Source: Candidatus Oxydemutator sp.
GTDB lineage: Bacteria > Pseudomonadota > Gammaproteobacteria > Poriferisulfidales > Oxydemutatoraceae
DNA length: 64,000 nucleotides
Direction: 5' to 3'
Assembly: GCA_965203445.1 (NCBI GenBank)
Contig: OZ241883.1
Coordinates: 1,120,001 to 1,184,000, forward strand
The position numbers and the translations under genes were made by a program. Of this stretch, positions 21,825 to 45,415 are shown piece by piece; position 1 is the stretch's first letter, and each line of letters begins with the position of its first letter. A model generated the notes under the pieces. It was not told where the DNA came from. It did not search any database and was given only the letters and a program-made list of their open reading frames with translations.

Positions 21825-21890
21825 AACCGGAGCGGCGCGCCACCATCCGCCGCGCGGCGCGGATATGGTATTCTGCATCAAGCACCGCGC

Positions 21891-25800: not shown

Positions 25801-25988
25801 GAGATAACTCCGTAGAAGTCGTCGTCCTCCGACGTCCTTTGACCATGAGGTCCAAGGAAGGGTCGGCCCGCCGTCTTCAGGCTTCTCATCCACGTGAGCA
25901 TGCGCACCGACGGCGGGAGTAACCCCTTTTTTCAAGAAGTACGGTAAAGGATTATTCAGGGGACTAACGAGTATCACAGAGTTATCTC
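25801..25988 (-). ncRNA. ssrS: 6S RNA
   Basis: Directly downstream of zapA; terminal stem GAGATAACTCTGT/ACGGAGTTATCTC; motifs GTCCCCTGA, GGTGCGCATGCTC, GAGAAGCCT and CCTTGGACC resemble gammaproteobacterial 6S RNA. Confidence 0.85.
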
Positions 25989-28122: not shown

Positions 28123-29354
28123 AGGGCGAGGGCGCCGTGGCCGACTTTGACGTCGTGGTCGTCGGTGGCGGCTTGGCCGGATCGGCGGCGGCGTTGGCCG
28201 CGTCGGCGGCCGGCGTGCGTTGTGCGATCATCGAGCCGCGCGACGTCGCCGCGGCGGCGAACGTGCCGTTGCGCGCGCTCGCGTTGTCGGCGGTCAGCCG
28301 GCGCATTCTTGACCACGTGGGCGCGTGGCGCGCGTTGCGCGAACGCGCGTGTCCGGTGCGCAAGATCCACGTGTCCGAGCAGGGGGTTTTCGGCGTGACT
28401 CGGATATGCGCGCGGCAGGAGGGACTGGACGCGCTCGGATACGTGGTCACCGCCGCCGACTTGATGCACGCGCTGCACCGGTCGCTGGCCGCGGCGCCCG
28501 CGATGACCGTGCTCTCCCCGGCGCGCGCCGAACGCGTCGAGCGCGATGCCGATTGCGTCCACGTCTCGGTCGCTGACGGCGGCGGCGCGCGCCGCCTGCG
28601 CGCGCGCTTGCTGGTGCTGGCCGACGGCGGCGCGTCGGATTTCTCGCGACGGCTGGGTTTCGAGCCGCGCACCAGGGATTACCGGCAGGTCGCGGTCGTC
28701 GCCGCGGTCGAAACCGACGAGGACGGCGGCGAGCACGTCGCCTATGAACGCTTCACTCCGAACGGCCCGCTCGCGGTGTTGCCGGTCGGCGGCCGTGCGC
28801 GCGTGGTCGCGTGGGTACACCCCGAGGCCGCGGCCGCCGAAGTCGCGGCCCTGCCGGACGCCGATTTCATCGCGCGTCTGCAACGGGTGCTGGGGAGGCG
28901 TCTCGGCCGCCTGGCGAATCCGGGGGAGCGTTTCGTCTATCCGCTGACGTTGCGCCGTGCGCCCGGCATGGCGCGCGATCGCGTCGTGCTGTTGGGCGAC
29001 GCCGCGCACCGCGTGCATCCGGTCGCCGGGCAGGGCTACAATCTGACGTTGCGCGACGTGGCTTTTCTGTCGCAGTGCGCGGCGGACGCCGGCGACGTCG
29101 GCGCGCGTGCGGTGCTCGACGCGTACCAGGCGTGCAGGACGCGCGACGTGCGCCGCGTGGTGCGCTTCACCGACGCGCTCGCCACGGCCTTTGTAAAACC
29201 CGGCAGGAGCGCGGCGTGTCTGCGTGGCGCCGCTCTCGTCGCGCTCGATCTGCTGCCGCCGTTGCGCCGCGCCATCGTGCGTCGCAGCCTCGGTCTGGCG
29301 CCGCCGTGGCCGCGTCTCGCCGGTGTTCCGCCGGTCACAGCCGATGCGGCCTGA
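28119..29354 (+). CDS. ubiH: 2-octaprenyl-6-methoxyphenol hydroxylase
   Basis: GGGLAG, AYERFTPNGPLA, GDAAHRVHPVAGQGYNL; pepP-ubiH order. Confidence 0.88.
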   Translation: MKGEGAVADFDVVVVGGGLAGSAAALAASAAGVRCAIIEPRDVAAAANVPLRALALSAVSRRILDHVGAWRALRERACPVRKIHVSEQGVFGVTRICARQEGLDALGYVVTAADLMHALHRSLAAAPAMTVLSPARAERVERDADCVHVSVADGGGARRLRARLLVLADGGASDFSRRLGFEPRTRDYRQVAVVAAVETDEDGGEHVAYERFTPNGPLAVLPVGGRARVVAWVHPEAAAAEVAALPDADFIARLQRVLGRRLGRLANPGERFVYPLTLRRAPGMARDRVVLLGDAAHRVHPVAGQGYNLTLRDVAFLSQCAADAGDVGARAVLDAYQACRTRDVRRVVRFTDALATAFVKPGRSAACLRGAALVALDLLPPLRRAIVRRSLGLAPPWPRLAGVPPVTADAA

Positions 29355-30546
29355 ACCGCCGACGGCAGTCGTCGGCGGCGGCGTCATCGGCCTGGCGTGC
29401 GCGGCCAGACTGGGATTGGACGGGCGTCGCGTGCTGCTGTTCGCGTCGCGACCGCGCGCCGTCGCGACCGACGCCGATGCTCCCTATACTCCGAGAACCT
29501 ACGCGCTGAACGCCGCCGCGTGCGCGTTTCTCGATTCCATCGGCGTGCTCGGGTCGCTGGCACGCTACGAGCGCTTTTGCGCGCTCGAGGTATGGGACGC
29601 CGAAGGCGGCGGGCGCATTCGCTTCGACGCGGCGGGTATCGGCGCCTCGCATCTGGGGCTGGTCGTCGAACACGCGCATTTGTCGCGGGCCTTGTTCACG
29701 CGCCTCGATGCGCTGGCGTGCGTCGAGCGTATCGAAGCGCGCCCGGCGGCGTATGCGCGGGCCGCGGCCGCGCATACGCACGGCGCGCCCCGTGGCCGGC
29801 GTATCTTCTTCGACGCGGGCGAGCGCGACGTGGGGGTGATCATCGGCGCCGACGGTGCGCGCTCCCGGGTGCGCGAATGGATGGGGGTGGGGTGGCGCGC
29901 GTGCGACTATCGGCAGACCGCGCTGGCCGCCGTCGTGCGCACCGAGATCGGGCACGAGGCCACCTGCTGGCAGTGCTTTTCGCGCGACGGTATCGTCGCG
30001 TTTCTGCCGTTGGCTGAGCGCGTCTGCGCGGTGGTCTGGTCGTGCCCGCGCGCGCTGGCCGGCGAGATCCTGGGCACGGGCGGGGACGCGGGCGCTTCTT
30101 TCGAGAGGCGTCTGGAACGCGCCTTCGGCGGGCGTCTCGGCGGCGTCGAACTCGTGTCCGAGGTCGCCTCGTTCCCGCTCTACGGCGGCATCGCCCGCGA
30201 CTACGTGCGCCCGGGTTTTGCGCTGGTCGGCGACGCCGCCCACGGCGTGCATCCGCTGGCGGGGCAGGGCGCGAACCTGGGTTTCGCCGACTTGGCGGCT
30301 TTGTTCGAGGCGCGCGAACAAAGCCGCGCCGCGGCCTTCTCGTGGCCGGTGTTGCGCCGTTATCAGAGAAGCGTCAAGGCGCGCAACTGGTGCATGAAGA
30401 CCGGGCTGGAAGCGCTGCTGTGGTTGTTCTCGCACCGCCGGGGCGCGGTGGTCGCGACGCGCAGCGCCGGTCTGGATTGCAGCGACCGTATCGCGCCGTT
30501 GAAGAGTTTCTTTATGCGCGTCGCCGGTGGCGCGCCACTCGGGTGA
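29344..30546 (+). CDS. ubiI: UbiI/UbiF family FAD-dependent hydroxylase
   Basis: GGGVIG, GADGARSRVR, GDAAHGVHPLAGQGANLG; follows ubiH. Confidence 0.78.
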   Translation: MRPEPPTAVVGGGVIGLACAARLGLDGRRVLLFASRPRAVATDADAPYTPRTYALNAAACAFLDSIGVLGSLARYERFCALEVWDAEGGGRIRFDAAGIGASHLGLVVEHAHLSRALFTRLDALACVERIEARPAAYARAAAAHTHGAPRGRRIFFDAGERDVGVIIGADGARSRVREWMGVGWRACDYRQTALAAVVRTEIGHEATCWQCFSRDGIVAFLPLAERVCAVVWSCPRALAGEILGTGGDAGASFERRLERAFGGRLGGVELVSEVASFPLYGGIARDYVRPGFALVGDAAHGVHPLAGQGANLGFADLAALFEAREQSRAAAFSWPVLRRYQRSVKARNWCMKTGLEALLWLFSHRRGAVVATRSAGLDCSDRIAPLKSFFMRVAGGAPLG

Positions 30547-33430: not shown

Positions 33431-34717
33431 ATGTCCCTCCGCTGTTCCTTTTTTTGGCTGTCGCTGCTGACGTTGGCCGCCGCCTCGGGCGCGAGCGCCG
33501 CCGGCGGGCGCGTCGCGGTGGTGTCGTTGTTGGGCGACGTTTTTCCCGCGACCTACATCGGCGCCACCGCGATGTCGAAGCGAACCTACCGCACGCGCGT
33601 GGCGCCGTGGCGGCTCGACGATTACGCGCGCGCCGTCGCCGCCGCCGCCATCAAGCGCGAAGACGAGTTCGACTACGTGGATTTTCGCCCCAATCGCAAG
33701 GCTTTCATGCGTCTCTACAGCGACGAGTTCCGCCTGCTCGACGACGGCCACTACGATGTCGACAACGTCGCCGGTCTGGTGCGCGCGCTGCGCGCGAAGT
33801 ACGGGGTGGATACACTGGTGCTTATCATCGCCGACCGCGTAAGCGACCCGATCGAGGAGACCTCGCTTACGTTCGGCGGCTACGGCCTGTATCGCAACGA
33901 CTTCATCGGCGACCGTAGCTATCTCTACGGTTTTTTCAAGGTGCTCGTGATAGACACCGACACGCTCGCCGAGCGGGCGCGGGGGACGGCCGCGGCCTAC
34001 ACCAGGATAGCCAAACGCTACTGGGGAGCGGGGTTGAATAAACTGTCGCGCGCCGCGCGCCGCACGGTGCGCGATACGACCGAAAGCCTGCTGGCAAAGC
34101 ACGTGCCGCTGGCGCTGGCCGACGCCGGGTTGATCGTGCGCACAAGCGTTGCCGCGCCTATGGATGAAGATGGGCTACCCTCGGGAGGGGAGATCGAGGA
34201 GCTCGAGTTCGAGGCCTCGCGCGTCGCTCCGGGCGAGGCGGGCGCCGACGTCGAGGCCGATTCCGACGCGAACGCCGGCACCGCTCGCCGCCGCGTCGCC
34301 GGTGGCTATGGGGCCGCGGCGCGGCGGCTTTTCATCGCGTCTGACGCGCGCCGGGCGTTCTACGAGTACACGCTGGAACACGTCAAGAATCGTCTGCTGC
34401 ACCGAGGAGAGAGCGCCGCGCCGTACCGGGACGTATGCCGCGCCTGGGTCGCCGAGCACTTTCGGTGGCCCGCCGTCGGAAAGCGGGTGATCGCGATGTA
34501 TCGGCGCACGGGTTTCAGCGCGCGCGATCTTGCCGAGATCGCCGATTTCGGCGCTTCCGCCGCCGGCGCGAAATTGCTGAAAAACGTACGATTTTCCGAC
34601 GAGCAGCGCAAGATATGGCGCGCAGTGGCGACCGCGCCACGTCTGAAAAGGCTGGCTGCGGCGGTGGCTGCACGCCGCGACTTGATCAGGCGCCAGGCCG
34701 GAAACCCGCAACCCTGA
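33431..34717 (+). CDS. Exported hypothetical protein with DUF2059-like C-terminus
   Basis: Signal peptide; FSARDLAEIADFGASAAGAKLL resembles DUF2059. Confidence 0.55.
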   Translation: MSLRCSFFWLSLLTLAAASGASAAGGRVAVVSLLGDVFPATYIGATAMSKRTYRTRVAPWRLDDYARAVAAAAIKREDEFDYVDFRPNRKAFMRLYSDEFRLLDDGHYDVDNVAGLVRALRAKYGVDTLVLIIADRVSDPIEETSLTFGGYGLYRNDFIGDRSYLYGFFKVLVIDTDTLAERARGTAAAYTRIAKRYWGAGLNKLSRAARRTVRDTTESLLAKHVPLALADAGLIVRTSVAAPMDEDGLPSGGEIEELEFEASRVAPGEAGADVEADSDANAGTARRRVAGGYGAAARRLFIASDARRAFYEYTLEHVKNRLLHRGESAAPYRDVCRAWVAEHFRWPAVGKRVIAMYRRTGFSARDLAEIADFGASAAGAKLLKNVRFSDEQRKIWRAVATAPRLKRLAAAVAARRDLIRRQAGNPQP

Positions 34718-34853
34718 AGGTTCCAATTCGCCGACGAGGACGCTGCCGTAAGTTATTGAACGGGAAAGCGCCGGATGCCTGGTATCATGATCTTCCATAT
34801 GATGGTCGGGTTCAATTTCGGCCCGATGACGACGCAGGAGCACAAAACTGAAA

Positions 34854-35159
34854 ATGAAGGACTTTCGCGACGTATTAAGAAGTATGCGGGAAGTGGCGCT
34901 TCAGTACGGCGACGACGCCGAGTTCAAGGCACGCGTGGACGACGATCCGGTCGCGGTGCTGCGAGAGCAGGGAATTGACGTCGCGCCGCCGGAAAAGGGC
35001 GCCGTACGTTTATACGTGAACGACGACAAGACGATGCACATTGTGTTTCCGCCCGCGCCCGGGCAACTCGGCGACGCCAAGTTGGAACGGGTGTCCGGCG
35101 GCACCCACGTCCAATTCGACACTTTCTGGCGCTCGCCCCAGTACTACGGCTATCCCTGA
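34854..35159 (+). CDS. NHLP (nitrile hydratase-like leader, proteusin-type) RiPP precursor
   Basis: DDAEFKARVDDDPVAVLREQGI...MHIVFPPAP..LGDAKLERVSGG, then core THVQFDTFWRSPQYYGYP. Confidence 0.8.
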   Translation: MKDFRDVLRSMREVALQYGDDAEFKARVDDDPVAVLREQGIDVAPPEKGAVRLYVNDDKTMHIVFPPAPGQLGDAKLERVSGGTHVQFDTFWRSPQYYGYP

Positions 35160-36577
35160 ACTTCCCGCGTGTGCGGGTCGTGACCGCTGCGGCAGCGCGC
35201 GGCGGCGGCCAACATTTCCCCGACGCGCGTGAACTTCTCGCGCGGCTTTTGCTTCGGCGCGCCGCGCGCTATCTCGGCGGCGTCTATCGCCTTCCAGCGG
35301 GCGTAGTCCACGTGTTCGACGCCGCGTTCGTCCAGTATCTCGAGCAGTCTCGCGGCGCCGGGTTTTGCGCGCGCGCGCAACGAGGCGGCGTCTTCCAGCA
35401 GCGCCGCGACGGTCTCGACCGCGCACGCGCGGTTGGTGCCGATGATTCCGGACGGCCCCCTCTTGATCCAACCCGCGGTATAGACGCCGGGGACTACCCC
35501 GCCGCCCCTGGACTCGGTAACCCTGCCGGCGCGGTTCGGGAAGGTGCCGCTTGCGTCGTCGAAGGGCACGCCGGCAATCGGCACGCCGCGGTAACCGATG
35601 CTGCGAAACAGCAGGCCGCACGCAAGCGCGCTCGTGGCGCCGGTCGCACGCGCCGATTGGCGAAAAGGTTCGCCTTCGAGGCGGTTGTGTTCGAGCACGA
35701 CGCGCTCAAGCCGCGCGCCGCCTTCGAGGCGCAGCGGGCTTTTCAGGAACGTGAAGCGGCAGACGCGCGGCTTGGCCGCATCCGCGTCGGCGTCCGCGAA
35801 TTGTTGCAGGATGGCGTAGTTTTTTTTGCCCATCGCGCCGGCTTTGTCCTCGATCTCGCGCCGGCTTTGCGGGTTTAGCGCAAGCTCCCGGGCGTCGACG
35901 CGCGCGCTGCAATTTTCGATCGTCAGAAACTCGCGCAATTCCTTCGACGTGAACTTGACCTGCGCCGGGCCGCGCCGCCCGACGACGTGGATCTCGCGGA
36001 TGCGGCTTTCGGCCAGCGCCGCAAGCGCGTGCTCGGCGATGTCGGTGTTTTTCAATTCGTCCACCGATTTGGCGAGGATGCGCGCCGCGTCGGCGGCGAC
36101 GTTGCCCTGGCCGATGATGACCGCGGTCTCGCGGGAGAAGTCGAAGACGCGGTCGCGGTAATCGGGATGGCCGTTGTACCAGCCGACCAGCTCGGTCGCG
36201 GTGTGGCTGCCCGGCAGGTGCTCGCCGGGGATACCGAGCTTGCGGTCGGTCTCCGCGCCGCAGGTATAGATCACGGCGTGGTGCGTTTGCCGCAGTTCCT
36301 CGGCGTCCAGGTCGCGGCCTACGGTGACGTTGCCGATGAAGCGGAACTCGGGGTTGTGCGCGATCTTGTCATAGACCCCGATAGCCTGTTTCAGCTTGGG
36401 ATGATCGGGTGCTACGCCGTTGCGCACCAGCCCGTACGGCGCCGGCAGGCGCTCGATCACGTCGACCCGCACCGGGCAGTCGGATTTGATCAGCGCCTCG
36501 GCGGCGTAAAAGCCGCTCGGCCCGGAACCGACGATGGCTACCTGGAGCGGATTTCTTTCGGTTGCGGTGCGTGCCAC
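35150..36577 (-). CDS. Ferredoxin-NADP+ reductase (adrenodoxin reductase/FprA type)
   Basis: VGSGPSGFYAA, PYGLVRNGVAPDH, GQGNVAAD, GRRGPAQ, GWIKRGPSGIIGTN. Confidence 0.92.
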   Translation of the reverse strand: MARTATERNPLQVAIVGSGPSGFYAAEALIKSDCPVRVDVIERLPAPYGLVRNGVAPDHPKLKQAIGVYDKIAHNPEFRFIGNVTVGRDLDAEELRQTHHAVIYTCGAETDRKLGIPGEHLPGSHTATELVGWYNGHPDYRDRVFDFSRETAVIIGQGNVAADAARILAKSVDELKNTDIAEHALAALAESRIREIHVVGRRGPAQVKFTSKELREFLTIENCSARVDARELALNPQSRREIEDKAGAMGKKNYAILQQFADADADAAKPRVCRFTFLKSPLRLEGGARLERVVLEHNRLEGEPFRQSARATGATSALACGLLFRSIGYRGVPIAGVPFDDASGTFPNRAGRVTESRGGGVVPGVYTAGWIKRGPSGIIGTNRACAVETVAALLEDAASLRARAKPGAARLLEILDERGVEHVDYARWKAIDAAEIARGAPKQKPREKFTRVGEMLAAAARCRSGHDPHTREVQG

Positions 36578-36584
36578 CGAGGCG

Positions 36585-36890
36585 TCAAAAGCCGAGTTCC
36601 GCCTTGCGGTCGTCGGCGCCCGGCAGCGGATCCATTTTGTCCTCTATCACCGGCAGGCCGGGGGCGCGTTCGGCGTTGATCGCGATCCACTCGTGCTTGT
36701 CCTCTGGCAGGTCGTCCTCCTCGTATATCGCCTCGACCGGGCATTCCGGGATGCACGCGCTGCAATCTATGCACACGTCGGGGTCTATGTAGAGCATTTC
36801 GTCGTCGTAGTGAAAGCAGGCGACCGGGCACACCGAAACGCAGTCGGTGAAGCGGCAACCCTTGCAGTTGTCGGTAACGATGGTGGTCAT
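36585..36890 (-). CDS. fdxA: FdxA-type dicluster ferredoxin
   Basis: VTDNCKGCRFTDCVSVCPVACF...CIDCSACIPECPVEAI. Confidence 0.9.
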   Translation of the reverse strand: MTTIVTDNCKGCRFTDCVSVCPVACFHYDDEMLYIDPDVCIDCSACIPECPVEAIYEEDDLPEDKHEWIAINAERAPGLPVIEDKMDPLPGADDRKAELGF

Positions 36891-36924
36891 GGGGTTTCTC
36901 CGGTTATTTGCCAGGTGGATTCTA

Positions 36925-37740
36925 TCAGTCCGACGGATGAAACAACAGAATTTCACCCTTGTTCAATTCGAGTCCGTCGCCACTGAAGCGCCGGTAGAGA
37001 CCGCTTGCATGGCGGTCTTCGACGGCGAGGCCGAGGTGCCGCAGGCGCGCCAGGTAGAGCGCGATGAACGGCGGTCGGTAGGTGCAGGCGTAGCCGTAGG
37101 TCGGCAGCATTTCCGCCGGCCTCATGCTCACGATGGTGGCGCGTTTCATGCCGGCGCCGGCGCGTATGCCGAGGTTGCCGAACACGAAGATCGTGCCCGC
37201 GATTGCGTTGACGCCGGTGAAGTCGCCGGCGTCGCCGCCGATGGCGATCAGGCCGCGGCGCATGGCCGCCCCGACCTCGTTGCGGACGCTGCCGTGGACG
37301 ATAATCTCGCCGCCGCAAATGCCGGAAGTCTGGCCGCGGTAGGCGCTGCCGACCATGTGCCCGGCGTCGCCCTTGACGATGATGCGCCCGCCCCTCATCT
37401 CCGGCCCGACCCAGTCGTGGGCGTCGCCGTCGACGACAATCTCGCCGCCGCTCATGCCCCAGCCGAGGTGCATACCGGCGTTGCCCGCGACGCGGATACT
37501 GCCGTGCGACATCTGTGCGCCGATCATCTTGACCAGCGACAGGTCGCCGCCGAGCGCGATCTCGTCGCCGCCTTGGCCTTGGACCTTGAAGAAGTCGCCG
37601 ATGCGCACCTTGCGGTTGCCGTGCATCGCGTCGAGATTCTCGACCGCGGCCGCGCTCAGGCCGGCCAGGCGGTGCGGGGTCAGACATTCCGCCTCGAGCG
37701 GCACCTCGGGGCGCGTGTGCAGCGTCAGTTCGATGGCCAT
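36925..37740 (-). CDS. fwdC: Formylmethanofuran dehydrogenase subunit C
   Basis: VPLEAECL, GXGMXGG beta-helix repeats, GAGMKRATI, terminal KGEIL. Confidence 0.92.
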   Translation of the reverse strand: MAIELTLHTRPEVPLEAECLTPHRLAGLSAAAVENLDAMHGNRKVRIGDFFKVQGQGGDEIALGGDLSLVKMIGAQMSHGSIRVAGNAGMHLGWGMSGGEIVVDGDAHDWVGPEMRGGRIIVKGDAGHMVGSAYRGQTSGICGGEIIVHGSVRNEVGAAMRRGLIAIGGDAGDFTGVNAIAGTIFVFGNLGIRAGAGMKRATIVSMRPAEMLPTYGYACTYRPPFIALYLARLRHLGLAVEDRHASGLYRRFSGDGLELNKGEILLFHPSD

Positions 37741-37754
37741 GGTGCGCTCCGCGC

Positions 37755-38645
37755 TCAGGCGCCTTTCAGGATCTCCTCGAGGTGGAGATGGTGGCGCCCG
37801 AGGGTGCCGCCGTAGTTGCCGGCGCTGATCATGTCGACGCCGGCGTCGGCCGCGGCCAGCATGCCGCGGCGCATGGCCTCGCGCACCGCGGCCTCGCTCA
37901 AGCCGTTGATGACGATCTCGTAGACCGCGTTGATGCCTTCCGGCAGTTGCGTCGCCGGTGCGACGTCGCGCAGCGTCGGGCAGTAGGCGTCGTTGGTCGA
38001 GGCCGGCAGGGTTTTGTATTTCGAGCCGACCTTGCTGCCCGAGCGGGTGCCGCCTGGAAACGGCATGAACGTGCCCTCGACTTCGGCGATCGCGGCGCAC
38101 GCCGCCTGCGTTGCTTCCAGCGTCGGCGCCGCCGACGCGCCCAGCAGCAGCAGGTTGCCGCCGCCGACGGTGCGTTGCACGCCGAACAGCTCGTCTATCA
38201 GGAATTCGCCGTCGAACACCGGAATGCGCCACATGCGCCGTCCGTCCAGAACTTTCGATCCCTGGTAGCCGTCGCCGAAATAGCGCAGCGCGCCGCCCAC
38301 GGAGACGCTTTGCGCCGACTCGAGACCGTTGAAGCAGGCCGTCGTCGGGCAGGTCATCACGCATTGGCCGATGCGTTCCACCAAGCGTTTCTTGAGGTCC
38401 CGTTCGCGCATCGTGAACAGCAGCACGCCGACGCCGGGGCGTCCGTCGGGGGTCGCGTCTGCGGCGACGTCGCTCTCGATGGCGGCCTCGCATCCGCAGG
38501 CGATGACCGACGTCGCAAACCCGGTCATCGTGCGCGCCGCGGTGCGCGCCCACTCGCGGTCGCTCGCGGTTATCACGACGCGGCTGCCCCAGGTCTCGAA
38601 GGCCTCGGCGTAGGTGGCGACGATCTCGGTGTTCTTGATTTTCAC
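37755..38645 (-). CDS. ftr: Formylmethanofuran:tetrahydromethanopterin formyltransferase
   Basis: TYAEAF, TGFATSVIACGCEA, TPDGRPG, RIGQCVMTCPTT, RSGSKVGSKY, SAGNYGG. Confidence 0.95.
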   Translation of the reverse strand: MKIKNTEIVATYAEAFETWGSRVVITASDREWARTAARTMTGFATSVIACGCEAAIESDVAADATPDGRPGVGVLLFTMRERDLKKRLVERIGQCVMTCPTTACFNGLESAQSVSVGGALRYFGDGYQGSKVLDGRRMWRIPVFDGEFLIDELFGVQRTVGGGNLLLLGASAAPTLEATQAACAAIAEVEGTFMPFPGGTRSGSKVGSKYKTLPASTNDAYCPTLRDVAPATQLPEGINAVYEIVINGLSEAAVREAMRRGMLAAADAGVDMISAGNYGGTLGRHHLHLEEILKGA

Positions 38646-40291
38646 CGCGCGTCCTTATCCGTTGCGGTCGGCACCACCTCGTGCAGATGCAGATAGTCGT
38701 CGCTGATCGCGTAGTTGTCGAAGCGGATGGTGTAATAGTCGTCGAAGAACGGGCGCAGCACGCCCTCGATGGCGTCGTCGTAGCCGGGCGCCACGTGCAG
38801 CAGGCGCCCGCGATGGTCGTGCTTGAACTCGTGATCCTCGATCACCAGCACGCCGTCCTTGATGACGTAGCGCGGCGAGTTGAACATCTTTTCGCGGTCG
38901 GCGTCCTCGGTGTATATCGTCACGTCGGCGTCGGCGCCGACGCCCAGGTGCCCCTTGTTGGCGAGGCCGAGGGCGCGCGCCGGGCCGGCGCGCGTGATGA
39001 TCGCGATCTCGCTCATCGTGTATTCGCGCTCCAAGCTCGCAAGGCTGGTCGTCGCCACCGCCTTCTCGTTGATGCGCTTGATCTCCTCGCGCCGAAACGC
39101 GCCGTCCATCAGCAGCCGGATCAGGCGCGGGTAATGCATGAACGAGCCGCCGTTGGGGTGGTCGGTGGACAACACCAGGCGCCACGGATCCTCCGACAGC
39201 AGGAACAATTCGAGGCCGATGGCCCATTGCAGCGCGTGCGTGAACACGTGCTCCTGGTAGGCGAACGGCATGATGCCGCAGCCGCTTTCGCATTCGGTAT
39301 CGGCGTTGACCCACTTGCTGGCCTTGTAACGGCGCAGCATCCACGCCAGCGGCGCGTCGGCGGTCATCGTGATGGCCTTGCCGAACATCACCTGGCCGAC
39401 GTCGGCGGTGACGTTCGGGTTGGCGTTGATGTAGTCTATGATCTGCTGCGCGCCCGAGCGCGGATTTTTGCCGGCCTCGCCGTCGTAACTGTGGAACTGA
39501 ATGTGCGCGATGTGCACGCGCCGTCCCTCGGCGGCCTTCATCGTTTGCAGCGTCGTGTGATAGTTGCCGCTGTGCCCCAGGTTGTTGCAGTGGATATGCG
39601 GCGGGTGCGGGAGACCGAGTTCGTTCACGGCCTCGACGAACGAGTGGATGATCTCCAGCGGCGTCAGCTCGAAGTGGTCCACCTTCTGGTCGAGGTCGGT
39701 GATGTTGCCGCGCCGCCCCTTCCACAACTCGTCGCTGCCGGGGTTGACCAGTTTCGTCGTGTAGCCCTTGGCCGCGTTCAGCCACCACGCAATCGCTTCC
39801 TTGAAGTCCTTCTTGCGGCCCTCCTTGAGCATTTTGTAGAGAAAGACGTTGTTGCCGAGCAGGATGTAAAAGCCCTTGTCTATGACCGGCGTGTCGCTGA
39901 ATTCCTCTATCGTGTGGCGCGCGAAGATCGGCGGCACCGCGGCCTCCATCGCGGTCGTGTAGCCCATGGTCGCGTAGCGGTAGCCGGTGGTGAAGGTCGA
40001 GGGCGTGATGCCGCCGGTGCCCGAGCGCGTGACCTCGGTGCCGGGGTGCACGTCCAGGCGGTGGTCCTCGGGTTGCAGCTTGCGCGCGAGATTGACCTTG
40101 GGGCCGGCGATGTGGCAATGGATGTCGACGCCGCCCGGCATCACGACCATGCCGTGCGCGTTGATGGTTCTGGCTGCGTCGGACACCGACTCGACGATTT
40201 TGCCGTCGCGGATGCAAATGGTCGCGACGTCGCCGTCCACGCCGTTGGCCGGGTCATAGACGCGCCCGTTGGTTATGCGCAATTCTGGCAC
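38642..40291 (-). CDS. fwdA: Formylmethanofuran dehydrogenase subunit A (amidohydrolase)
   Basis: DIHCHIAG, KLVNPG, HIHCNNLG, HIQFHSY, STDHPNGG. Confidence 0.95.
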   Translation of the reverse strand: MPELRITNGRVYDPANGVDGDVATICIRDGKIVESVSDAARTINAHGMVVMPGGVDIHCHIAGPKVNLARKLQPEDHRLDVHPGTEVTRSGTGGITPSTFTTGYRYATMGYTTAMEAAVPPIFARHTIEEFSDTPVIDKGFYILLGNNVFLYKMLKEGRKKDFKEAIAWWLNAAKGYTTKLVNPGSDELWKGRRGNITDLDQKVDHFELTPLEIIHSFVEAVNELGLPHPPHIHCNNLGHSGNYHTTLQTMKAAEGRRVHIAHIQFHSYDGEAGKNPRSGAQQIIDYINANPNVTADVGQVMFGKAITMTADAPLAWMLRRYKASKWVNADTECESGCGIMPFAYQEHVFTHALQWAIGLELFLLSEDPWRLVLSTDHPNGGSFMHYPRLIRLLMDGAFRREEIKRINEKAVATTSLASLEREYTMSEIAIITRAGPARALGLANKGHLGVGADADVTIYTEDADREKMFNSPRYVIKDGVLVIEDHEFKHDHRGRLLHVAPGYDDAIEGVLRPFFDDYYTIRFDNYAISDDYLHLHEVVPTATDKDAR

Positions 40292-40391
40292 TGATACGTA
40301 GCGAGGACGCCGGATCGCGCCCTATCTTCAGGGGCCGATTCGGCGGCTGGCTCGATCTGCTGGTTTGGCGGACAACTATGATTTCCCGTCG

Positions 40392-41741
40392 CTACGCGGC
40401 CCGTGGTCGGTTGCGCAGCGCGAGCACTTTGTCGTGGATCGCGGACAGGATCTCCTCGTCGTCCGGGAACGGCGACGCAAACGCCGGGCGCAGCGAAATC
40501 GGCACGTCGTCCATCCGGTACACGGTGCCGCCGGTGTTGATACCGTAGGTGGCGACGGTGAAGGCGACCCTGGCCAGGCGGCTGGTCTCGGTCGGCTTGG
40601 TGTCGAGCGAGATTACCGGGATGCGCCGCAGGCACTCGATGGCCTTCTTCGGAAAATTGGACGCCGGGTCGGTGGCGATGACCATGGCCGCGTCGGCCTC
40701 GCCGCGCGCGAGCACGTCCACGGTCGTGAACTCGCCCGGGTTGAAACGCGGAAAACCGCGATTGAAGTTGACGCCGAACGGATAACCGGTCTGCCACGAC
40801 ACGACGTTGTCGGCGCCGGTCACGTTGCCGTGTCCGCGCACCGGCTTGGCGACGAACGGCGCGTATTTGTTGAGGTCCGCGGCCAGCGCCAGCACCGCGC
40901 CCGAATTGAAGTGGCGCCCGCGCGTCATCGTCAGCCCCATGCCGAAGAACAACACACCGTAGCGACAGCTTTTCATGCGCGCGACGAGATCGTCCAGGGT
41001 CTCGCGCGACACGCCGGTCACCTCCTCGACGTCGGCGGACACCCGGCGGCCCTCGACCAGCGCGCGCAGCGTCCACAGCAACTCGAAGTCGCGCCCCGGC
41101 TTGACCTGGATGAAGATGTCGGCGACCGGCGCGCTCGGCGTCTTGCGCACGTCCACCAGCACCACGGTGCGGTCCTTCTTGCCGTTGGGGACGTGCATGC
41201 CCTTGGGCGTTACCGCGTAGCGCGTGAAGTGGCGCGGGTGCGACTCGGCCGGGTTGCCGCCCCAATAGATGACCAGGTCGGCGCGGTTCTTGACTTCGCC
41301 CAGGGTCGAGGTGGTCTCGCCGACGCCCTGAAACGCGATGCCGGAGGGGCCGTGGCACACCGACGTCGTGGTATCCACGCTGCCGCGAATCGCGTCGCTG
41401 ATCGCGACCGCGACGCGCTGTGCCTCGCAGGTCGAGTCGCTGAGCCCGTAGGTGATCGGATAGCGGGCGTTTACCAGGATGCGCGCGGCCTCCTCGACCG
41501 CCTCCTCGACGCTCGCCTCGCGCCCGTCTATCAGCGCCGCCGGACGATCCTCTATCGTATGTTCGGCGAACCACGCGCGTCCGAGCACGCATGCGTTCTT
41601 GGCCTTGGTGATCCGGTTTTCCTTCAGGTCGACGGTCAGTTCCATGTCGTCGCAGACGCAGCCGCAGAAGGTGCAGGTCGCGTCCTTGACGATTTTGGTC
41701 GGGTTTTTTTCCCGTTCCGGTTTTGTTTTGTTCTCGCTCAT
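40392..41741 (-). CDS. fwdB: Formylmethanofuran dehydrogenase subunit B (Mo/W-bis-PGD)
   Basis: CTFCGCVCDD Fe-S motif, SVCHGP metal-ligand motif, TLGEVKNRADL, RGHGNV, YRMDDVP. Confidence 0.93.
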   Translation of the reverse strand: MSENKTKPEREKNPTKIVKDATCTFCGCVCDDMELTVDLKENRITKAKNACVLGRAWFAEHTIEDRPAALIDGREASVEEAVEEAARILVNARYPITYGLSDSTCEAQRVAVAISDAIRGSVDTTTSVCHGPSGIAFQGVGETTSTLGEVKNRADLVIYWGGNPAESHPRHFTRYAVTPKGMHVPNGKKDRTVVLVDVRKTPSAPVADIFIQVKPGRDFELLWTLRALVEGRRVSADVEEVTGVSRETLDDLVARMKSCRYGVLFFGMGLTMTRGRHFNSGAVLALAADLNKYAPFVAKPVRGHGNVTGADNVVSWQTGYPFGVNFNRGFPRFNPGEFTTVDVLARGEADAAMVIATDPASNFPKKAIECLRRIPVISLDTKPTETSRLARVAFTVATYGINTGGTVYRMDDVPISLRPAFASPFPDDEEILSAIHDKVLALRNRPRAA

Positions 41742-41745
41742 CGGA

Positions 41746-42114
41746 TTACTCGGCTTTGTCGTGCTCGTTGGTCTTGGGCACGGCCTCGACGCGGACTTCG
41801 ATCTGCTTGGACAAGGGCATGCCGCTGCCCGCCGTGTCGCTGCCCATCAACTCGCTCGACGACGGGCCGTAGGCCATGAAAATTATACCAGACGGCAAGT
41901 CGGCGGCCTTCTTCGGCACGCACGTTACGACGACCTCGCCCTCGTCGGAAGTCAGGCGCACCGCGTCGCCTTTTTCGAGTTTCAGGCTCTTCATGTCGTC
42001 TTCGTTCATCTCGACGGTCGAGGTGACGGCGAGGTATTCGTCCTTGAGTTTGCCGGCGTTCAGCGAGGTGCCCTGCTTGGTCGTTCTGCCGGGAATCAGC
42101 AGCATGGTTCTCAT
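41746..42114 (-). CDS. fwdD: Formylmethanofuran dehydrogenase subunit D (molybdopterin dinucleotide-binding)
   Basis: LIPGRTTKQG, MNEDDM..L, GIIFMAYGP, TAGSGMP. Confidence 0.88.
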   Translation of the reverse strand: MRTMLLIPGRTTKQGTSLNAGKLKDEYLAVTSTVEMNEDDMKSLKLEKGDAVRLTSDEGEVVVTCVPKKAADLPSGIIFMAYGPSSSELMGSDTAGSGMPLSKQIEVRVEAVPKTNEHDKAE

Positions 42115-42461
42115 ACGGTTTTTGTACGTACGTCGTGCGGAAGTCGTGGTAAGGAATCGTGAAGGAATTGCGCGCACGGCGCGAGCGCAGGCGACAAAGA
42201 TACTACGATACTACAATACAAGCTTAATTCAAGAAATATCCGGCTTTGCCTGGCCGGGCGCGGCCCGCGGCCACGCCCGCACGCTGACCCGGAAGTTATA
42301 GTCGTCGTTGCCGGCCCCTTCGGTGGGTACGCCGGCGGGGCCGCCGGCTGCGTTGCTTGTCTGTTATACTGGTATATTCTGCCGCGTACAATCCGCAAAA
42401 CAGTTCCGCGCCAGGCAGAACGTCAGGCCACGGCATCTAACGAAGTCTTTTTAAGGAGAGA

Positions 42462-43577
42462 ATGGTGAGCCAAGCAAGCCAGCCGTGCGTCGGCGTCTTG
42501 TCGGAGACGACCGCGCTCGAGAAACGGGTTTCATTGGTGCCGGAGACGGTGGGTTCTCTGGTCGGCGCCGGTCTTCGGGTCACGGTGGCGCGCGACGCCG
42601 GCGCGGGCGCCGGTTTCGGCGACGAATTGTACGCCGACGCGGGCGCGTCGCTCGCCGACAACGACGCGGTCTATCGCGACGCCGACGTCATCGTTTGCGT
42701 GACGCCGTTTTCGCCCGACAACGCCGAGCGTCTGCGCGACGGCTGCATCGTCGCCGGCTTTCTCGATCCCGTGGGGCAGCCCCAGGCGGCGGAAGTGTTC
42801 GCGCGCAAGAACGTCACGGCCTTGGCGTTCGAGCAAATGCCGCGCACGACGCGCGCCCAGGCCATGGACGCGCTGTCGTCGCAGCGCTCGGTCATCGGCT
42901 ACACGTCGGTGCTGATGGGCGCCAACCTGCTGCCGCGTTTTATCCCGATGCTGACGACGCCGGCGGGAACGATCCGTCCGGCGAGCATCTTTGTCATCGG
43001 CACCGGCGTCGCCGGCTTGCAGGCGATTGCGACGGCCAAGCGCCTCGGCGCCATCGTGCTTGCGACCGACGTGCGCGCGGTGGCCAAGGAGCAGGTCGAA
43101 TCTCTCGGCGCGCGTTTCGTGTTTCCCGACATCGAGGCCGACGCCGACGGCGGCTACGCGCGCGAATTGACCGAGGACGAAAAGAAAAAGCAGCAGGAGC
43201 TGCTGGCCAAGAGCATCGCCGACTCCGATATCGTGATCACCACGGCCCTGATCCCGGGGCGCCCGGCGCCGAAGATCGTCGGCGAGGACGTGATCAAGAC
43301 GATGAAGCCGGGTTCGGTTATCGTCGACGCCGCGGCCGACGGCGGCGGCAACTGCGCGCTCAGCAATCCGGGCGCCACCGAGACGCACCACGGCGTCACG
43401 GTGCACGCGCCGCTGAACGTGCCGAGCCACCTGCCGACCCATTCGAGCGTCATGTATTCGCGCAACCTGCACAACCTCCTGAAACTGATGTTGGACGACG
43501 ACGGGAACTTGGCGCCGGATTGGGAAGACGAGATTTTGCAGGGGGCGCGGCTTGCGCGCGCCGGCGCCGAAAACTAA
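42462..43577 (+). CDS. pntAA: NAD(P) transhydrogenase alpha, part 1
   Basis: EKRVSLVP, RTTRAQAMDALSSQ, GTGVAGLQA, TTALIPGRPAP. Confidence 0.95.
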   Translation: MVSQASQPCVGVLSETTALEKRVSLVPETVGSLVGAGLRVTVARDAGAGAGFGDELYADAGASLADNDAVYRDADVIVCVTPFSPDNAERLRDGCIVAGFLDPVGQPQAAEVFARKNVTALAFEQMPRTTRAQAMDALSSQRSVIGYTSVLMGANLLPRFIPMLTTPAGTIRPASIFVIGTGVAGLQAIATAKRLGAIVLATDVRAVAKEQVESLGARFVFPDIEADADGGYARELTEDEKKKQQELLAKSIADSDIVITTALIPGRPAPKIVGEDVIKTMKPGSVIVDAAADGGGNCALSNPGATETHHGVTVHAPLNVPSHLPTHSSVMYSRNLHNLLKLMLDDDGNLAPDWEDEILQGARLARAGAEN

Positions 43578-43697
43578 GGCGGCGCACGGCGACCCGAACC
43601 AACCCCCGGTGCTCTTTGTTTTTGCCAACCCCAATTTTATCAACCCAACTTTACCAACCAAGGGCCCCCACGAGAAACGCCCACACAGGAGACACCC

Positions 43698-44039
43698 ATG
43701 AGTGCGGAAATTATCGGAATCATCGCGTTGTACATTTTCATGCTGTCGGCGTTCACCGGCTACGAGGTCATCAGCCGCGTGCCTTCGATTTTGCACACGC
43801 CGCTGATGTCGGGCTCGAACTTCATCCACGGCATCGTGCTGGTCGGCGCCATGGTGGTGTTGGGTCGGGCCGATCCGAATGACGTGGTCAGCTTGGTCAT
43901 CGGCTTCATCGGCGTGGTGCTGGCCGCCGGCAACGCGGTCGGCGGCTACGTCGTGACCGAGCGCATGCTCGGCATGTTCAAACAGAGCGGCGACTCCAAG
44001 AACGACTCCAAGGGCGATTCCAAGGGCGGCTCCAAATGA
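43698..44039 (+). CDS. pntAB: NAD(P) transhydrogenase alpha, part 2
   Basis: VPSILHTPLMSGSNFIHG, GGYVVTERMLGMF. Confidence 0.95.
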   Translation: MSAEIIGIIALYIFMLSAFTGYEVISRVPSILHTPLMSGSNFIHGIVLVGAMVVLGRADPNDVVSLVIGFIGVVLAAGNAVGGYVVTERMLGMFKQSGDSKNDSKGDSKGGSK

Positions 44040-45415
44040 TCTCCGAGATCCAGACCGCGGTCATCCAGATCGCGTACTTCGTCGCCGCGTTTTTGTTCAT
44101 CGTCGGCCTGCGCCAGATGAGCTCGCCGGTGTCCGCCGGACGCGGCATCGTCTGGGCCGGCATCGGCATGCTGGTGGCGACGCTGGTCACCTTCGGCTGG
44201 CCCGACATGGGCAACTACGCGCTGATGACGGTCGCAATTTTCGTCGGCGGCATCGTCGCGTGGATCACCGGCAAGCGCGTGCAGATGACCGGAATGCCGC
44301 AGATGATCGCGCTCTACAACGGCATGGGCGGCGGCGCCGCGGCCTGCATCGGCGCGCTCGAACTATGGCACAGCGAAAGCCACGGCCACGTCGTGCTGGC
44401 GCTGGCGGCGGCCGGCGGCCTGATCGGTTCGGTGTCCTTTTCCGGTTCGCTGATCGCGTTCGCCAAGCTGCAAGGGCTGATCAACAAGTCGTTCGTGTTC
44501 AAGGGGCAGCACGTGCTGAACGGCGCGCTGCTGCTGGCGGCGGTCGTGCTCGGCGTGATATTTGCAAGCGGCGCGGTGCCGACCCATCTGCTGATCCTGT
44601 TCTTTGCCGGCGTCCTGCTGCTCGGCATCCTGATGACGCTGCCGATAGGCGGCGCCGACATGCCGGTCGTGATCTCGCTCTACAACGCGCTGACCGGCCT
44701 GGCCGTCGGCTTCGAGGGTTTCGTGCTGAACAACGCGGCGATGATTATCGCCGGCACCGTGGTCGGCGCCTCGGGCACGCTGCTTACGCAGCTGATGGCC
44801 AAGGCCATGAACCGCTCGCTTGCGAACGTGCTGTTCTCCGGTTTCGGTTCGCAGCAGCAGGCCGAGGGCGACGTCGACGGTCAGATGAAGCCCATCGAGG
44901 CCAACGACGCGGCCGTGATGATGGCGTACTCGCAGAAGGTCATCGTCATTCCCGGCTACGGCATGGCCGTGGCCCAGGCGCAGCACAAGCTGTGGGAGTT
45001 CGCGCAGATGCTCGAGGCGCGGAACGTCGAGGTGCTGTTTGCGATCCATCCGGTGGCCGGGCGCATGCCGGGGCACATGAACGTGCTGCTGGCCGAGGCC
45101 GGCGTACCCTACGACAAAATTTTCGATCTGGAGGACGTCAACGCCAGTTTCCCGCAGACCGACGTCGCGCTGGTCATCGGCGCCAACGACGTCGTCAACC
45201 CGGACGCGCGCACCAACAAGTCGAGTCCGATCTACGGCATGCCGATCCTGGACGCCGACCGGGCGGCGACGTGCATCGTCATCAAGCGCGGCCAGGGCAA
45301 GGGCTTCTCCGGCATCCAGAACAAACTGTTTTTCGCCGACAACACGCGCATGCTGTACGGCGACGGCCAGAAGGTCTGCTCCAACCTGGTACAGGGAATC
45401 AAGCAGTTGGGCTGA
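44036..45415 (+). CDS. pntB: NAD(P) transhydrogenase beta
   Basis: IGGADMPVVIS, PGYGMAVAQAQ, HPVAGRMPGHMNVLLAEA. Confidence 0.96.
   Translation: MISEIQTAVIQIAYFVAAFLFIVGLRQMSSPVSAGRGIVWAGIGMLVATLVTFGWPDMGNYALMTVAIFVGGIVAWITGKRVQMTGMPQMIALYNGMGGGAAACIGALELWHSESHGHVVLALAAAGGLIGSVSFSGSLIAFAKLQGLINKSFVFKGQHVLNGALLLAAVVLGVIFASGAVPTHLLILFFAGVLLLGILMTLPIGGADMPVVISLYNALTGLAVGFEGFVLNNAAMIIAGTVVGASGTLLTQLMAKAMNRSLANVLFSGFGSQQQAEGDVDGQMKPIEANDAAVMMAYSQKVIVIPGYGMAVAQAQHKLWEFAQMLEARNVEVLFAIHPVAGRMPGHMNVLLAEAGVPYDKIFDLEDVNASFPQTDVALVIGANDVVNPDARTNKSSPIYGMPILDADRAATCIVIKRGQGKGFSGIQNKLFFADNTRMLYGDGQKVCSNLVQGIKQLG

Follow-up and report, generated by a model that had tools for sequence, protein, structure and literature searches.

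A predicted archaeal-type formylmethanofuran dehydrogenase operon with its own ferredoxin and FprA-type reductase genes in a sponge-associated gammaproteobacterium

Introduction

The archaeal complex FwdABCDFG has been solved (M. wolfeii, PDB 5T5I; also 8RJA, 9SFI and 7BKB), and in 'Ca. Ethanoperedens thermophilum', whose Fwd carries the F420-reductase subunit FwdI, the higher-potential hydride carrier makes formyl-MFR oxidation strongly exergonic (excerpt of PMC11493965). The FhcABCD complex of Methylorubrum extorquens (PDB 6S6Y) belongs to the bacterial H4MPT pathway; in its FhcB the Fe-S domain is missing, as are Cys118, His119 and Arg288, and the complex has no FwdD (excerpt of PMC6926001). 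Fwd-type genes have also been described in bacteria: Hakuba Actinobacteria carry a fwdDBA-ftr-fwdC operon that retains the Fe-S domain and Cys118 (excerpt of PMC7325909), and a survey of bacterial FwdB counted 149 representatives (excerpt of PMC10100899). The excerpts of the latter two papers name no electron acceptor, ferredoxin/FprA module or FwdD-reductase fusion, and we found no descriptions of FdxA/FprA or FwdD-CysJ reductase modules in the literature. Here, we describe an operon in a 64,000-nucleotide stretch of Candidatus Oxydemutator sp. (the window; contig OZ241883.1, positions 1,120,001 to 1,184,000), which probably encodes a bacterial Mo/W-pterin formylmethanofuran dehydrogenase of the archaeal type (FwdABCD), together with Ftr and a dedicated electron outlet.

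Results

Organization of the locus

Seven minus-strand genes lie in a row in the order fwdD-fwdB-fwdA-ftr-fwdC-fdxA-fprA, with spacings of -4 to 100 nt (fwdD/fwdB, 4; fwdB/fwdA, 100; fwdA/ftr, -4; ftr/fwdC, 11; fwdC/fdxA, 34; fdxA/fprA, 7). The product of fwdD (41746..42105, 119 aa) is a separate 'domain IV' cap over the pterin site (Pfam Molydop_binding, 8.1e-11; NCBIfam FwdD, 3.6e-22); its reading frame extends to 42177, and homologues begin at the ATG at 42105. The predicted catalytic subunit, of the Mo/W-bis-pterin class and with a [4Fe-4S] domain at its N terminus, is encoded by fwdB (40392..41741, 449 aa; TIGR03129, 507 bits, cut-off 328), and the amidohydrolase that splits or forms formyl-methanofuran is encoded by fwdA (38642..40291, 549 aa; TIGR03121, 717.7 bits against 392.75; Pfam Amidohydro_3, 2.4e-49). 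These are followed by the fhcD-like ftr (37755..38645, 296 aa), encoding the formylmethanofuran:H4MPT formyltransferase (Pfam FTR, 8.9e-59, and FTR_C, 3.5e-56; TIGR03119, 407 bits against 292.6), and by fwdC (36925..37743, 272 aa), encoding the beta-helix scaffold subunit (TIGR03122, 254.6 bits against 130.65; Pfam GXGXG). The row closes with fdxA (36585..36890, 101 aa), a second, divergent copy of a 7Fe (3Fe-4S + 4Fe-4S) ferredoxin gene, and fprA (35150..36577, 475 aa), encoding an FAD-dependent NADPH:ferredoxin oxidoreductase of the adrenodoxin-reductase type.

Divergent from these on the plus strand lie the proton-translocating transhydrogenase genes pntAA (42462..43577), pntAB (43698..44039) and pntB (44036..45415), which carry the Pfam domains AlaDh_PNT, PNTB_4TM and PNTB. 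Family scans place all ten genes where the first-pass annotation had put them. The promoters are presumed to lie in the divergent fwdD/pntAA intergenic region (42106..42461), in which neither an Rfam match nor a Moco riboswitch was found. Across 34500-42700, no sigma-70-like site was detected, and the sole minus-strand terminator-like hairpins fall within 42106..42461, upstream of fwdD, with none inside the operon. The pnt genes had been proposed as a balancing partner of fwd, yet among the 56 loci whose sequence extends 5 kb or more upstream of fwdB, they adjoin fwd in just one, namely, the nearest relative of the window (L004), which is also the only locus to share its outer flanks. Membership of pntAA-pntAB-pntB in the fwd system is thus not supported by linkage, and on gene order they would be neighbours.

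FwdB and FwdD are of the archaeal redox type

By alignment to M. wolfeii FwdB (5t5i_B), the CTFCGCVCDD and SVCHGP motifs of the window's FwdB correspond to the [4Fe-4S] cysteines and to Cys118/His119, respectively. The cluster cysteines are matched by C23, C26, C30 and C51, and at each of these positions 76-77 of 77 related sequences have the cysteine; C129, H130 and R302 are equivalent to M. wolfeii C118, H119 and R288. Of the 77 bacterial FwdB sequences at related loci, 74 retain all seven cofactor residues (four Fe-S cysteines, the Cys-His pair and the arginine), and do so across phyla; the Cys column is gapped in the remaining three (L077, L078 and L080), with an in-frame TGA at that position in L078 and L080. 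The Fe-S motif, the metal-ligating cysteine and the presence of FwdD, which had been read from the window at first pass, are therefore borne out, and Arg288 is kept as well. The same annotation had proposed setting FwdB against the cofactor-less FhcB: FwdB is approximately 50% identical to solved archaeal FwdB/FmdB (E-values of 7e-114 to 4e-99), whereas its match to Methylorubrum FhcB (6s6y_B) reaches only 3.6e-13.

For FwdD, matches to archaeal FwdD chains of known structure range from 1.5e-16 to 3.9e-12, and the subunit accompanies FwdB in 21 of 21 and in 23 of 23 genomes. FwdA and FwdC, which complete the Fwd/Fmd set, both score above their family cut-offs, and no FwdF/FwdG electron-transfer subunit is present in the operon. 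Of the features that mark Fhc, the window has the formyltransferase gene within the cluster (ftr lies between fwdA and fwdC); it does not have a B subunit devoid of the Fe-S domain and of Cys118/His119/Arg288, nor does it lack a D subunit. FhcB-like paralogues in Methylococcales-type genomes have lost the FwdB cofactor residues; no such paralogue was found in the window's genome. These comparisons support the assignment of FwdB and FwdD to the archaeal redox type rather than to FhcB.

The ferredoxin and the reductase

The last gene of the row had been annotated as 'fnr'; a reductase gene does lie there, but its class is different. A plant-type FNR was rejected, and the protein is a full-length homologue of FprA/adrenodoxin reductase, matching M. 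tuberculosis FprA (1lqt) at 1.8e-107 over residues 10-457 and bovine adrenodoxin reductase (1cjc) at 1.1e-99. The alignment to 1lqt reveals a complete two-domain FAD/NADP fold with a GRRGP stretch, which we take to bind the 2'-phosphate. The gene is present in a single copy in the genome.

FdxA resembles A. vinelandii ferredoxin I (about 1e-30), and it has nine cysteines that are invariant in 25 orthologues and a C-terminal DUF3470 extension; its match to FwdG (1.4e-4 only) runs through the Fe-S motif. The operon FdxA scores 116.8 bits for FdxA_Protbact, under the cut-off of 135, and the other FdxA of the genome (at 751890), to which it is 50% identical, scores 165.2. Ferredoxins of the 7Fe class are one-electron carriers whose 4Fe cluster is very low in potential, and in mycobacteria FprA is known to pair with them.

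Conservation of fdxA and fprA with fwd

By FwdB, 34 loci group with the window, and the 28 of them that extend at least 300 nt beyond fwdC form the informative set. In this set, fdxA is present in 27 loci and fprA in 26. One locus (L033) retains the pair upstream of fwdD; another (L039) continues for 2.5 kb beyond fwdC without fdxA and fprA, which we count against the NADP+ reading. In a 400-genome sample of the class, FwdB occurs in 21 genomes, FprA-like proteins in 29 and both in 20, spanning 11 families, although these co-occurrence counts are inflated by kinship; 15 of these 20 have both genes on one contig, no more than 7 kb apart. The first-pass annotation would have been refuted by ferredoxin and reductase genes not conserved with fwd; in the related loci both are conserved, and in the class sample 20 of the 21 FwdB genomes have FprA. 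Three genomes that retain a close fprA have no Fwd-type fwdB and were counted against. In G204, fdxA-fprA adjoins an Fhc-type cluster; in G381, fprA adjoins an Fhc-type cluster, and fdxA was not found in the stretch fetched; and in G119, fdxA and fprA flank a fwdA remnant. Therefore, the fdxA/fprA pair can persist without FwdB. The window's genome is no special case: this seven-gene arrangement recurs in many uncultured proteobacteria.

Another finding concerns the Methylococcales-type order around L038, in which FwdD is fused to a CysJ-type FMN/FAD/NADPH diflavin reductase. The fusion was found in 18 of 26 FwdD matches and in 78 of 79 protein clusters. Such a fusion in a separate lineage suggests that the chain ends at NADP(H), and thus supports, independently of FdxA and FprA, a putative NADP(H) outlet. 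Moco genes are embedded in the fwd clusters of L048 and L078, and some genomes hold Fwd and Fhc sets in tandem.

Genome context

A search of the genome for H4MPT, methanofuran, Mo/W-cofactor and C1 dehydrogenase genes, as suggested at first pass, recovered the pathway genes fae, mtdB and mch; those for beta-RFAP synthase, MptN and CitG-like and ATP-grasp proteins; the methanofuran biosynthesis gene for MfnB; and those for MobA and MoaB. ModA was not found in the genome, and a TupA-like protein scores below its cut-off. An XoxF/MxaF-family (PQQ methanol/ethanol-family) dehydrogenase (771 bits) is encoded, as is the alpha subunit of an NAD-type (FdsA-like) formate dehydrogenase (764 bits), whose gene has a NuoF-like neighbour; because of this formate dehydrogenase, Fwd is not the sole or strictly needed route from formate-level carbon to CO2. 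RuBisCO was not found in the genome, nor was anything seen there that points to an H4MPT-based assimilation route. The host was said to have ubiquinone genes, and a UbiH-family ubiquinone hydroxylase is indeed encoded at 29224-30546.

Discussion

Based on the results presented above, formaldehyde, for example, from the XoxF/MxaF-family dehydrogenase, would be converted by Fae, MtdB and Mch to formyl-H4MPT, and Ftr would transfer the formyl group from H4MPT to methanofuran or methylofuran. FwdA would hydrolyse formyl-methanofuran, FwdBD would oxidize the formate-level carbon to CO2, and the two electrons would leave the FwdB [4Fe-4S] cluster for the dedicated 7Fe FdxA and pass via the FprA-type flavoprotein to NADP+. 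The net reaction would be formyl-H4MPT + NADP+ -> CO2 + H4MPT + NADPH, with no free formate. We hold with moderate confidence that formyl-MFR is oxidized to CO2 and that the electrons reach NADP+ via the operon's own outlet; the metal content, direction, partners and acceptor are predicted from sequence.

It is also conceivable that the enzyme is a true dehydrogenase whose product is reduced FdxA, a low-potential reductant, with FprA equilibrating the ferredoxin pool with NADPH or feeding ferredoxin from NADPH, so that NADP+ would not be an obligatory acceptor. Archaeal Fwd enzymes use ferredoxin (excerpt of PMC11493965), FdxA is a soluble-type 7Fe ferredoxin and no FwdG/FwdF homologue, and in a CRISPRi screen of M. 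capsulatus, fwdB, fwdA, the Rnf complex and a ferredoxin were all needed on methane (PMC13108547), which fits a ferredoxin currency. This proposal appears unlikely, however, given that fprA is conserved with fwd as tightly as fdxA (26 versus 27 of 28 loci), that Methylococcales join FwdD straight to an NADPH reductase with no ferredoxin, and that a canonical FdxA is already encoded in the genome. We consider it improbable that the complex works like Fhc, i.e., that formyl-methylofuran is hydrolysed, formate is freed and then oxidized by the NAD-dependent formate dehydrogenase, the FwdBD scaffold keeps its motifs by chance, and fdxA-fprA are neighbours by descent. Three observations agree with it: ftr separates fwdA from fwdC, an arrangement shared with fhc clusters; an FdsA-like enzyme is encoded; and in G204 and G381, which lack FwdB, fprA (in one case with fdxA) persists next to an Fhc-type cluster. 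On the other hand, the seven cofactor residues are invariant in 74 of 77 sequences across phyla and lost in the FhcB-like paralogues of the Methylococcales-type order, FwdD is invariably kept with FwdB, Moco genes sit inside some fwd clusters, and genomes with tandem Fwd and Fhc argue for differing functions.

A reverse run, in which NADPH would reduce FdxA through FprA and Fwd would fix CO2 into formyl-MFR for assimilation, had also been entertained at first pass. The very low potential of the 4Fe cluster in 7Fe ferredoxins would suit it, and the potential of NADP+ is -320 mV. Fwd chemistry is reversible, with a direction not set by the active sites, and E0' of formyl-MFR/CO2 is -530 mV (excerpt of PMC11493965). 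Such a run would be about 210 mV uphill from NADPH, a penalty of roughly +40 kJ/mol at standard potentials, and these potentials speak for the oxidative reading; the cluster contains no bifurcating partner of the Hdr or Nfn type, fae and the methanol-family dehydrogenase fit oxidation, and the genome search yielded no assimilation route, all of which makes this direction very unlikely. Equally slight is the chance that the role of FdxA and FprA, in an aerobic host, is to keep the Mo/W centre or the Fe-S cluster, which are sensitive to oxygen, intact or to activate them by reduction, rather than to act as the catalytic outlet. The carriers do look aerobic (ubiquinone genes, PQQ dehydrogenase), and some other enzymes have metal centres that are repaired by NADPH-driven systems; nevertheless, a stoichiometric acceptor would still be required, the cluster encodes no alternative one, and the FwdD-CysJ fusion puts a full-size reductase on the enzyme itself. 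In general, the archaeal redox type of FwdB/FwdD, the H4MPT pathway and the conserved ferredoxin-reductase pair of the first-pass annotation are supported by comparison, and its NADP(H) end is suggested by the fusion; the link to pnt is not supported, and the reverse run is disfavoured.

Fwd + FdxA + FprA wiring, with the function predicted here, appears to be common to many uncultured bacteria. Carriers of an Fwd with either type of outlet include sponge symbionts and some of the Methylococcales, as well as a Chromatiales MAG from Frasassi; the FwdB of this MAG is almost identical to the one in the USC-gamma MAG from upland soil. In the sponge-associated gammaproteobacterium, the last bound C1 intermediate is probably burnt straight to CO2 and its electrons probably stored as NADPH. 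Whether, in many aerobic bacteria, the final step of H4MPT-linked C1 oxidation falls to an Fwd supercomplex that forms CO2 and reduces NADP+ instead of to the textbook Fhc and formate dehydrogenase, with the NADP(H) outlet acquired at least twice (FdxA + FprA; FwdD::CysJ), seems to us evenly balanced. The frequent Fwd/Fhc tandem, if true, may imply a cellular switch between formate and NADPH production.

Comparison with known systems

The window shares FwdA, FwdB, FwdC and FwdD, the last as a separate cap, with archaeal FwdABCDFG but has no FwdF/FwdG polyferredoxin in the cluster; ftr lies inside the operon, a 7Fe ferredoxin and an FAD reductase would form the outlet, and the host is an aerobic-type bacterium in which the direction is presumed to be oxidative. 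FhcABCD is likewise a bacterial H4MPT pathway complex whose formyltransferase is encoded with A, B and C in a similar order around ftr; however, Fhc releases formate and lacks FwdD, whereas the window's FwdB keeps the Fe-S domain, the Cys-His pair and the arginine. The gene order fwdDBA-ftr-fwdC of the Hakuba Actinobacteria is identical to that in the window. The Fwd of 'Ca. Ethanoperedens thermophilum' follows the same plan, with the polyferredoxin replaced by a dedicated reductase module, but it is archaeal and anaerobic, uses F420 rather than NADP+ and keeps FwdG; its bound reductase was demonstrated by structure and assay, whereas the module in the window is a predicted one. Finally, M. 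tuberculosis FprA (1LQT) and adrenodoxin reductase (1CJC), to which the window's FprA is similar over its full length, take electrons from NADPH and deliver them to the ferredoxins that serve P450s and similar enzymes, whereas in the window the gene belongs to a C1-oxidation operon and the proposed flow is from ferredoxin to NADP+.

Organization of the fwd operon

Family scans of the window located all ten genes where the first-pass annotation had placed them. The minus strand carries fwdD (41746-42105), fwdB (40392-41741), fwdA (38642-40291), ftr (37755-38645), fwdC (36925-37743), fdxA (36585-36890) and fprA (35150-36577), the last encoding a 475-aa flavoprotein, and pntAA, pntAB and pntB (42462-45415) lie divergently on the plus strand. 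The intergenic gaps from fwdD to fprA are, in order, 4, 100, -4, 11, 34 and 7 nt. A consensus scan of 34500-42700 returned no sigma-70-like promoter (0 sites) and no minus-strand terminator-like hairpin within the operon; the only two such hairpins both lie upstream of fwdD. An Rfam scan gave no match upstream of fwdD, the Moco riboswitch included.

The reductase had been named FNR. A gene of the ferredoxin-reductase type is indeed present at that place, but it does not encode a plant-type FNR: over its full length the flavoprotein is homologous to M. tuberculosis FprA (E = 1.8e-107) and to adrenodoxin reductase (1.1e-99), and it contains a GRRGP stretch. FdxA matches the 7Fe ferredoxin I of Azotobacter at about 1e-30. 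It is 101 aa long in 26/26 complete orthologues, the 27th (L057) being truncated by a contig end, and nine cysteines are invariant across 25 aligned sequences. Against the NCBIfam model FdxA_Protbact (cut-off 135), the operon FdxA scores 116.8 and the other FdxA of the genome 165.2; the operon FdxA is therefore a specialised second copy.

Conservation of the fdxA-fprA pair

With the window's proteins, 80 related loci were searched. Assignment by FwdB placed 34 proteobacterial loci in the window group; the other 46 come from Methylococcales, Planctomycetota, and singles from Gemmatimonadota, Acidobacteriota, Actinomycetota and others. In 28 of the 34, at least 300 nt of sequence extends beyond fwdC, and among these informative loci fdxA was found in 27/28 and fprA in 26/28, bearing out the claimed conservation of the ferredoxin and reductase genes with fwd. 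The informative locus lacking fdxA-fprA is L039; in L057 the contig ends inside fdxA, L010 has a 2.3-kb insert, and in L033 the pair lies upstream of fwdD. Outside the window group, fprA occurs in 0/46 loci and an fdxA-like gene in 1/46 (L034). On a quick IQ-TREE tree (midpoint root, SH-aLRT support only), the fdxA-fprA label requires 8 changes, compared with 22.6 in shuffles. Eight relatives of the window do not carry the pair: for seven of them the contig is truncated, and the eighth is L039. L004 is the only locus that shares the genes on either side of the window's cluster, pnt among them. The transhydrogenase had also been tied to fwd; adjacency was found in just 1/56 loci whose upstream sequence is 5 kb or longer, and pnt was rejected as a component of the fwd system for want of conserved linkage.

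Co-occurrence was followed in the window's genome and a sample of 400 others from the class. Proteins resembling FprA (E up to 1e-40) were found in 29/400 scored genomes, FwdB (E up to 1e-60) in 21/401, with FwdD in the same 21, and FwdB and FprA together in 20 genomes of 11 families, counts that are an association and not a statistic, since kin are not independent. Without the unpublished genomes G308, G039, G296 and G141, these numbers become 25 for FprA, 17 for FwdB and 16 for both. In 15 of the 20 genomes with both, fwdB and fprA lie no more than 7 kb apart on one contig; in G232, a contig break inside fwdA splits the cluster. The sole FwdB genome without FprA, G010, is 75% complete, and its contig ends inside fwdC. 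Nine genomes have FprA without FwdB: five with distant homologues (44-48% identity, one being just an N-terminal piece), one with a contig-end fragment, and three with close homologues (61-63%) beside fwd/fhc genes. An Fhc-type cluster is adjoined by fdxA-fprA in G204 and by fprA in G381. In G119 the order is fdxA, a fwdA remnant (residues 399-523 only) and fprA (L112:1841-5442), which looks like a decayed fwd cluster.

Type of FwdB and FwdD

The window's FwdB matches the solved archaeal FwdB/FmdB chains 9sfi_Q, 8rja_B, 5t5i_B, 9sw6_J and 7bkb_H at 7e-114 to 4e-99, compared with a partial-length match at 3.6e-13 to Methylorubrum FhcB (6s6y_B). Aligned to 5t5i_B, it retains the four cluster cysteines, Cys118-His119 (in SVCHGP) and Arg288 (in RGH). 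Hemmann et al. name those same residues as lost in FhcB, along with FwdD and the Fe-S domain (PMC6926001). For the window's FwdD, the matches to solved chains of this subunit range from 1.5e-16 to 3.9e-12. Given these matches and the retention of the residues lost in FhcB, the assignment of FwdB and FwdD to the archaeal redox type holds.

All seven cofactor residues are present in 74/77 FwdB sequences from the related loci. In the remaining three the Cys column is gapped: L077, and two Actinomycetota-labelled MAGs with an in-frame TGA at the catalytic Cys (L078:9945-11375 and L080:5105-7297). The simplest reading of this codon is selenocysteine, and both FwdB proteins are probably selenocysteine enzymes. 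Moco genes (MoeA with a PBP-like domain, MobA-like and a ModC-like ATPase) lie within or adjoining bacterial fwd clusters at L048:10548-14092 and L078:11866-13712.

A second reductase attached to FwdD

In L038, from a Methylococcaceae MAG, the FwdD domain forms the N-terminus of a 730-aa protein (L038:7509-9701, minus strand), whose gene is divergent from fwdB. The remainder of this protein is an FMN/FAD/NADPH reductase of the CysJ type (TIGR01931 at 685 bits, above cut-off). Similar fusions are found in Methylococcales-type genomes at L107:514-2670, L108:13985-16135, L109:5909-8077 and L111:2996-5185, and a search limited to the FwdD part gave the fusion architecture in 78/79 clusters. For one of these, Molydop_binding is absent from the precomputed hits, and two that are shorter have no NAD-binding domain; where named, they are mostly labelled sulfite reductase flavoprotein.

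Across 121 genomes of the order of L038, FwdD was found in 26: 18 hits lie in frames of 727-770 aa, 3 are truncated by contig ends and 5 stand alone (25 genomes and 17 long frames without the unpublished G444). Fwd-type FwdB is present in 23 genomes, all within the 26, and is accompanied by an FhcB-like gene in 22/23; in 70 further genomes of the order the FhcB-like gene occurs alone (25-33% identity). These FhcB-like paralogues lack three of the four Fe-S cysteines, the Cys-His pair and the Arg. Among the examples inspected, complete tandem Fwd-type and Fhc-type sets occur at L107:2819-12211, L108:4369-13797, L115:1-8998 and L116:2080-12442. G403, of the same order, has the window's arrangement with fdxA-fprA.

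An apparent 570-aa FprA+FwdD fusion, the protein record P0321, was rejected as a frameshift artefact from a single contig, with residues about 340-460 out of frame; its locus shows only fprA just upstream of fwdD. A third variant of the B subunit, adjoining fprA, keeps the four Fe-S cysteines and lacks Cys-His and Arg (L113:5559-6857; L114:10413-11651, longest frame 9690-11663; L116:5457-6812). This is a warning that the role of the fdxA-fprA pair may be independent of the pterin site.

Genome context

The window lies within a single 2.38-Mb contig. The search for H4MPT, methanofuran and Mo-cofactor genes found an H4MPT island (beta-RFAP synthase, mtdB, an ATP-grasp gene, mch, MptN, a CitG-like gene and fae), MfnB, which serves the furan moiety, and MobA and MoaB. 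The genome also encodes a PQQ methanol/ethanol-family dehydrogenase (771 bits), a second, weaker one, and three molybdopterin enzymes besides Fwd, including an FdsA-like formate dehydrogenase alpha subunit (764 bits) adjoined by a NuoF-like gene. Because of this FdsA-like gene, the idea that Fwd is required for want of a formate dehydrogenase was rejected. No FhcB-like paralogue, ModA or RuBisCO large subunit was found in the genome; a TupA-like binding protein scores 216.7 bits, below the cut-off of 400. There is one copy each of fwdA and fwdC, the second fdxA is 50% identical, and the second ftr is an orphan (42% identical) near ergothioneine-type genes (G000:C1:1912027-1912914 in this genome; L089:10003-11226); the frame of this ftr may have an N-terminal extension of ~100 aa.

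Directly upstream of the H4MPT island are genes for a MauG/MbnH-family di-heme enzyme and a ResA-like thiol-disulfide oxidoreductase (L087:10237-12147; genome about 2,010,200-2,012,100). Elsewhere, the window carries a type II secretion cluster (gspD, E, F, H, J, K, L; 7253-23000, plus strand), a 6S RNA gene (25803-25985, minus strand, 81.7 bits) and a low-GC stretch (0.53-0.56; 59504-63747) with an adjoining tRNA at 60922, a MADS3-like AAA ATPase and an adenine methyltransferase, which is probably a defence island. Among public genomes, the closest relatives are MAGs under the labels 'Candidatus Porisulfidus' and Chromatiales, and the datasets partially matching the window DNA are sponge metagenomes.

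Proposed electron path and comparison with known systems

From sequence, we infer the metal, activity, partners and direction of this Fwd. Electrons would pass from the FwdB cluster to FdxA, then to the FAD of FprA and on to NADP+; since the operon includes ftr, the formyltransferase may, as in Fhc, be part of the complex too. The strongest argument for NADP(H) as the partner of Fwd is that two unrelated NADP(H)-linked reductases appear to have been attached to the same enzyme. NADP+ lies at -320 mV. With a standard potential of -530 mV for formyl-MFR/CO2 (PMC11493965), NADP+-coupled oxidation would be about 40 kJ/mol downhill, and the reverse, CO2-reducing reaction is therefore unlikely without bifurcation.

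Bacterial FwdB with Cys118 and the gene order fwdDBA-ftr-fwdC have been noted for Hakuba Actinobacteria (PMC7325909), and one survey counts 149 bacterial FwdB representatives (PMC10100899). For this enzyme, the paper on the M. capsulatus genome names subunits A, B and C alone (PMC517821), and a CRISPRi screen reports fwdB, fwdA, Rnf and a ferredoxin as important on methane (PMC13108547). Our literature search found no account of the fdxA-fprA module or of the FwdD-reductase fusion. To our knowledge, Methylorubrum Fhc is the only bacterial enzyme of this step that has been studied biochemically. This enzyme has no cofactor and its product is formate, and it underlies the models of methylotrophy and methanotrophy. 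Should the Fwd type prove active, with NADPH as its end product, C1 oxidation would conserve its most reducing step (-530 mV) directly as reductant for biosynthesis, formate would no longer be an obligatory intermediate, and routine 'fwdABCD' calls in metagenomes would conceal two different enzymes; the operon and the FwdD fusion offer concrete, expressible constructs for testing this. A related arrangement is described for an archaeal Fwd, in which an F420-reductase subunit replaces the polyferredoxin and the direction is argued to be set by the acceptor, not by the active site (PMC11493965). Whereas that enzyme uses an F420-reductase subunit, the bacterial analogue proposed here would use FdxA and FprA to reach NADP+.
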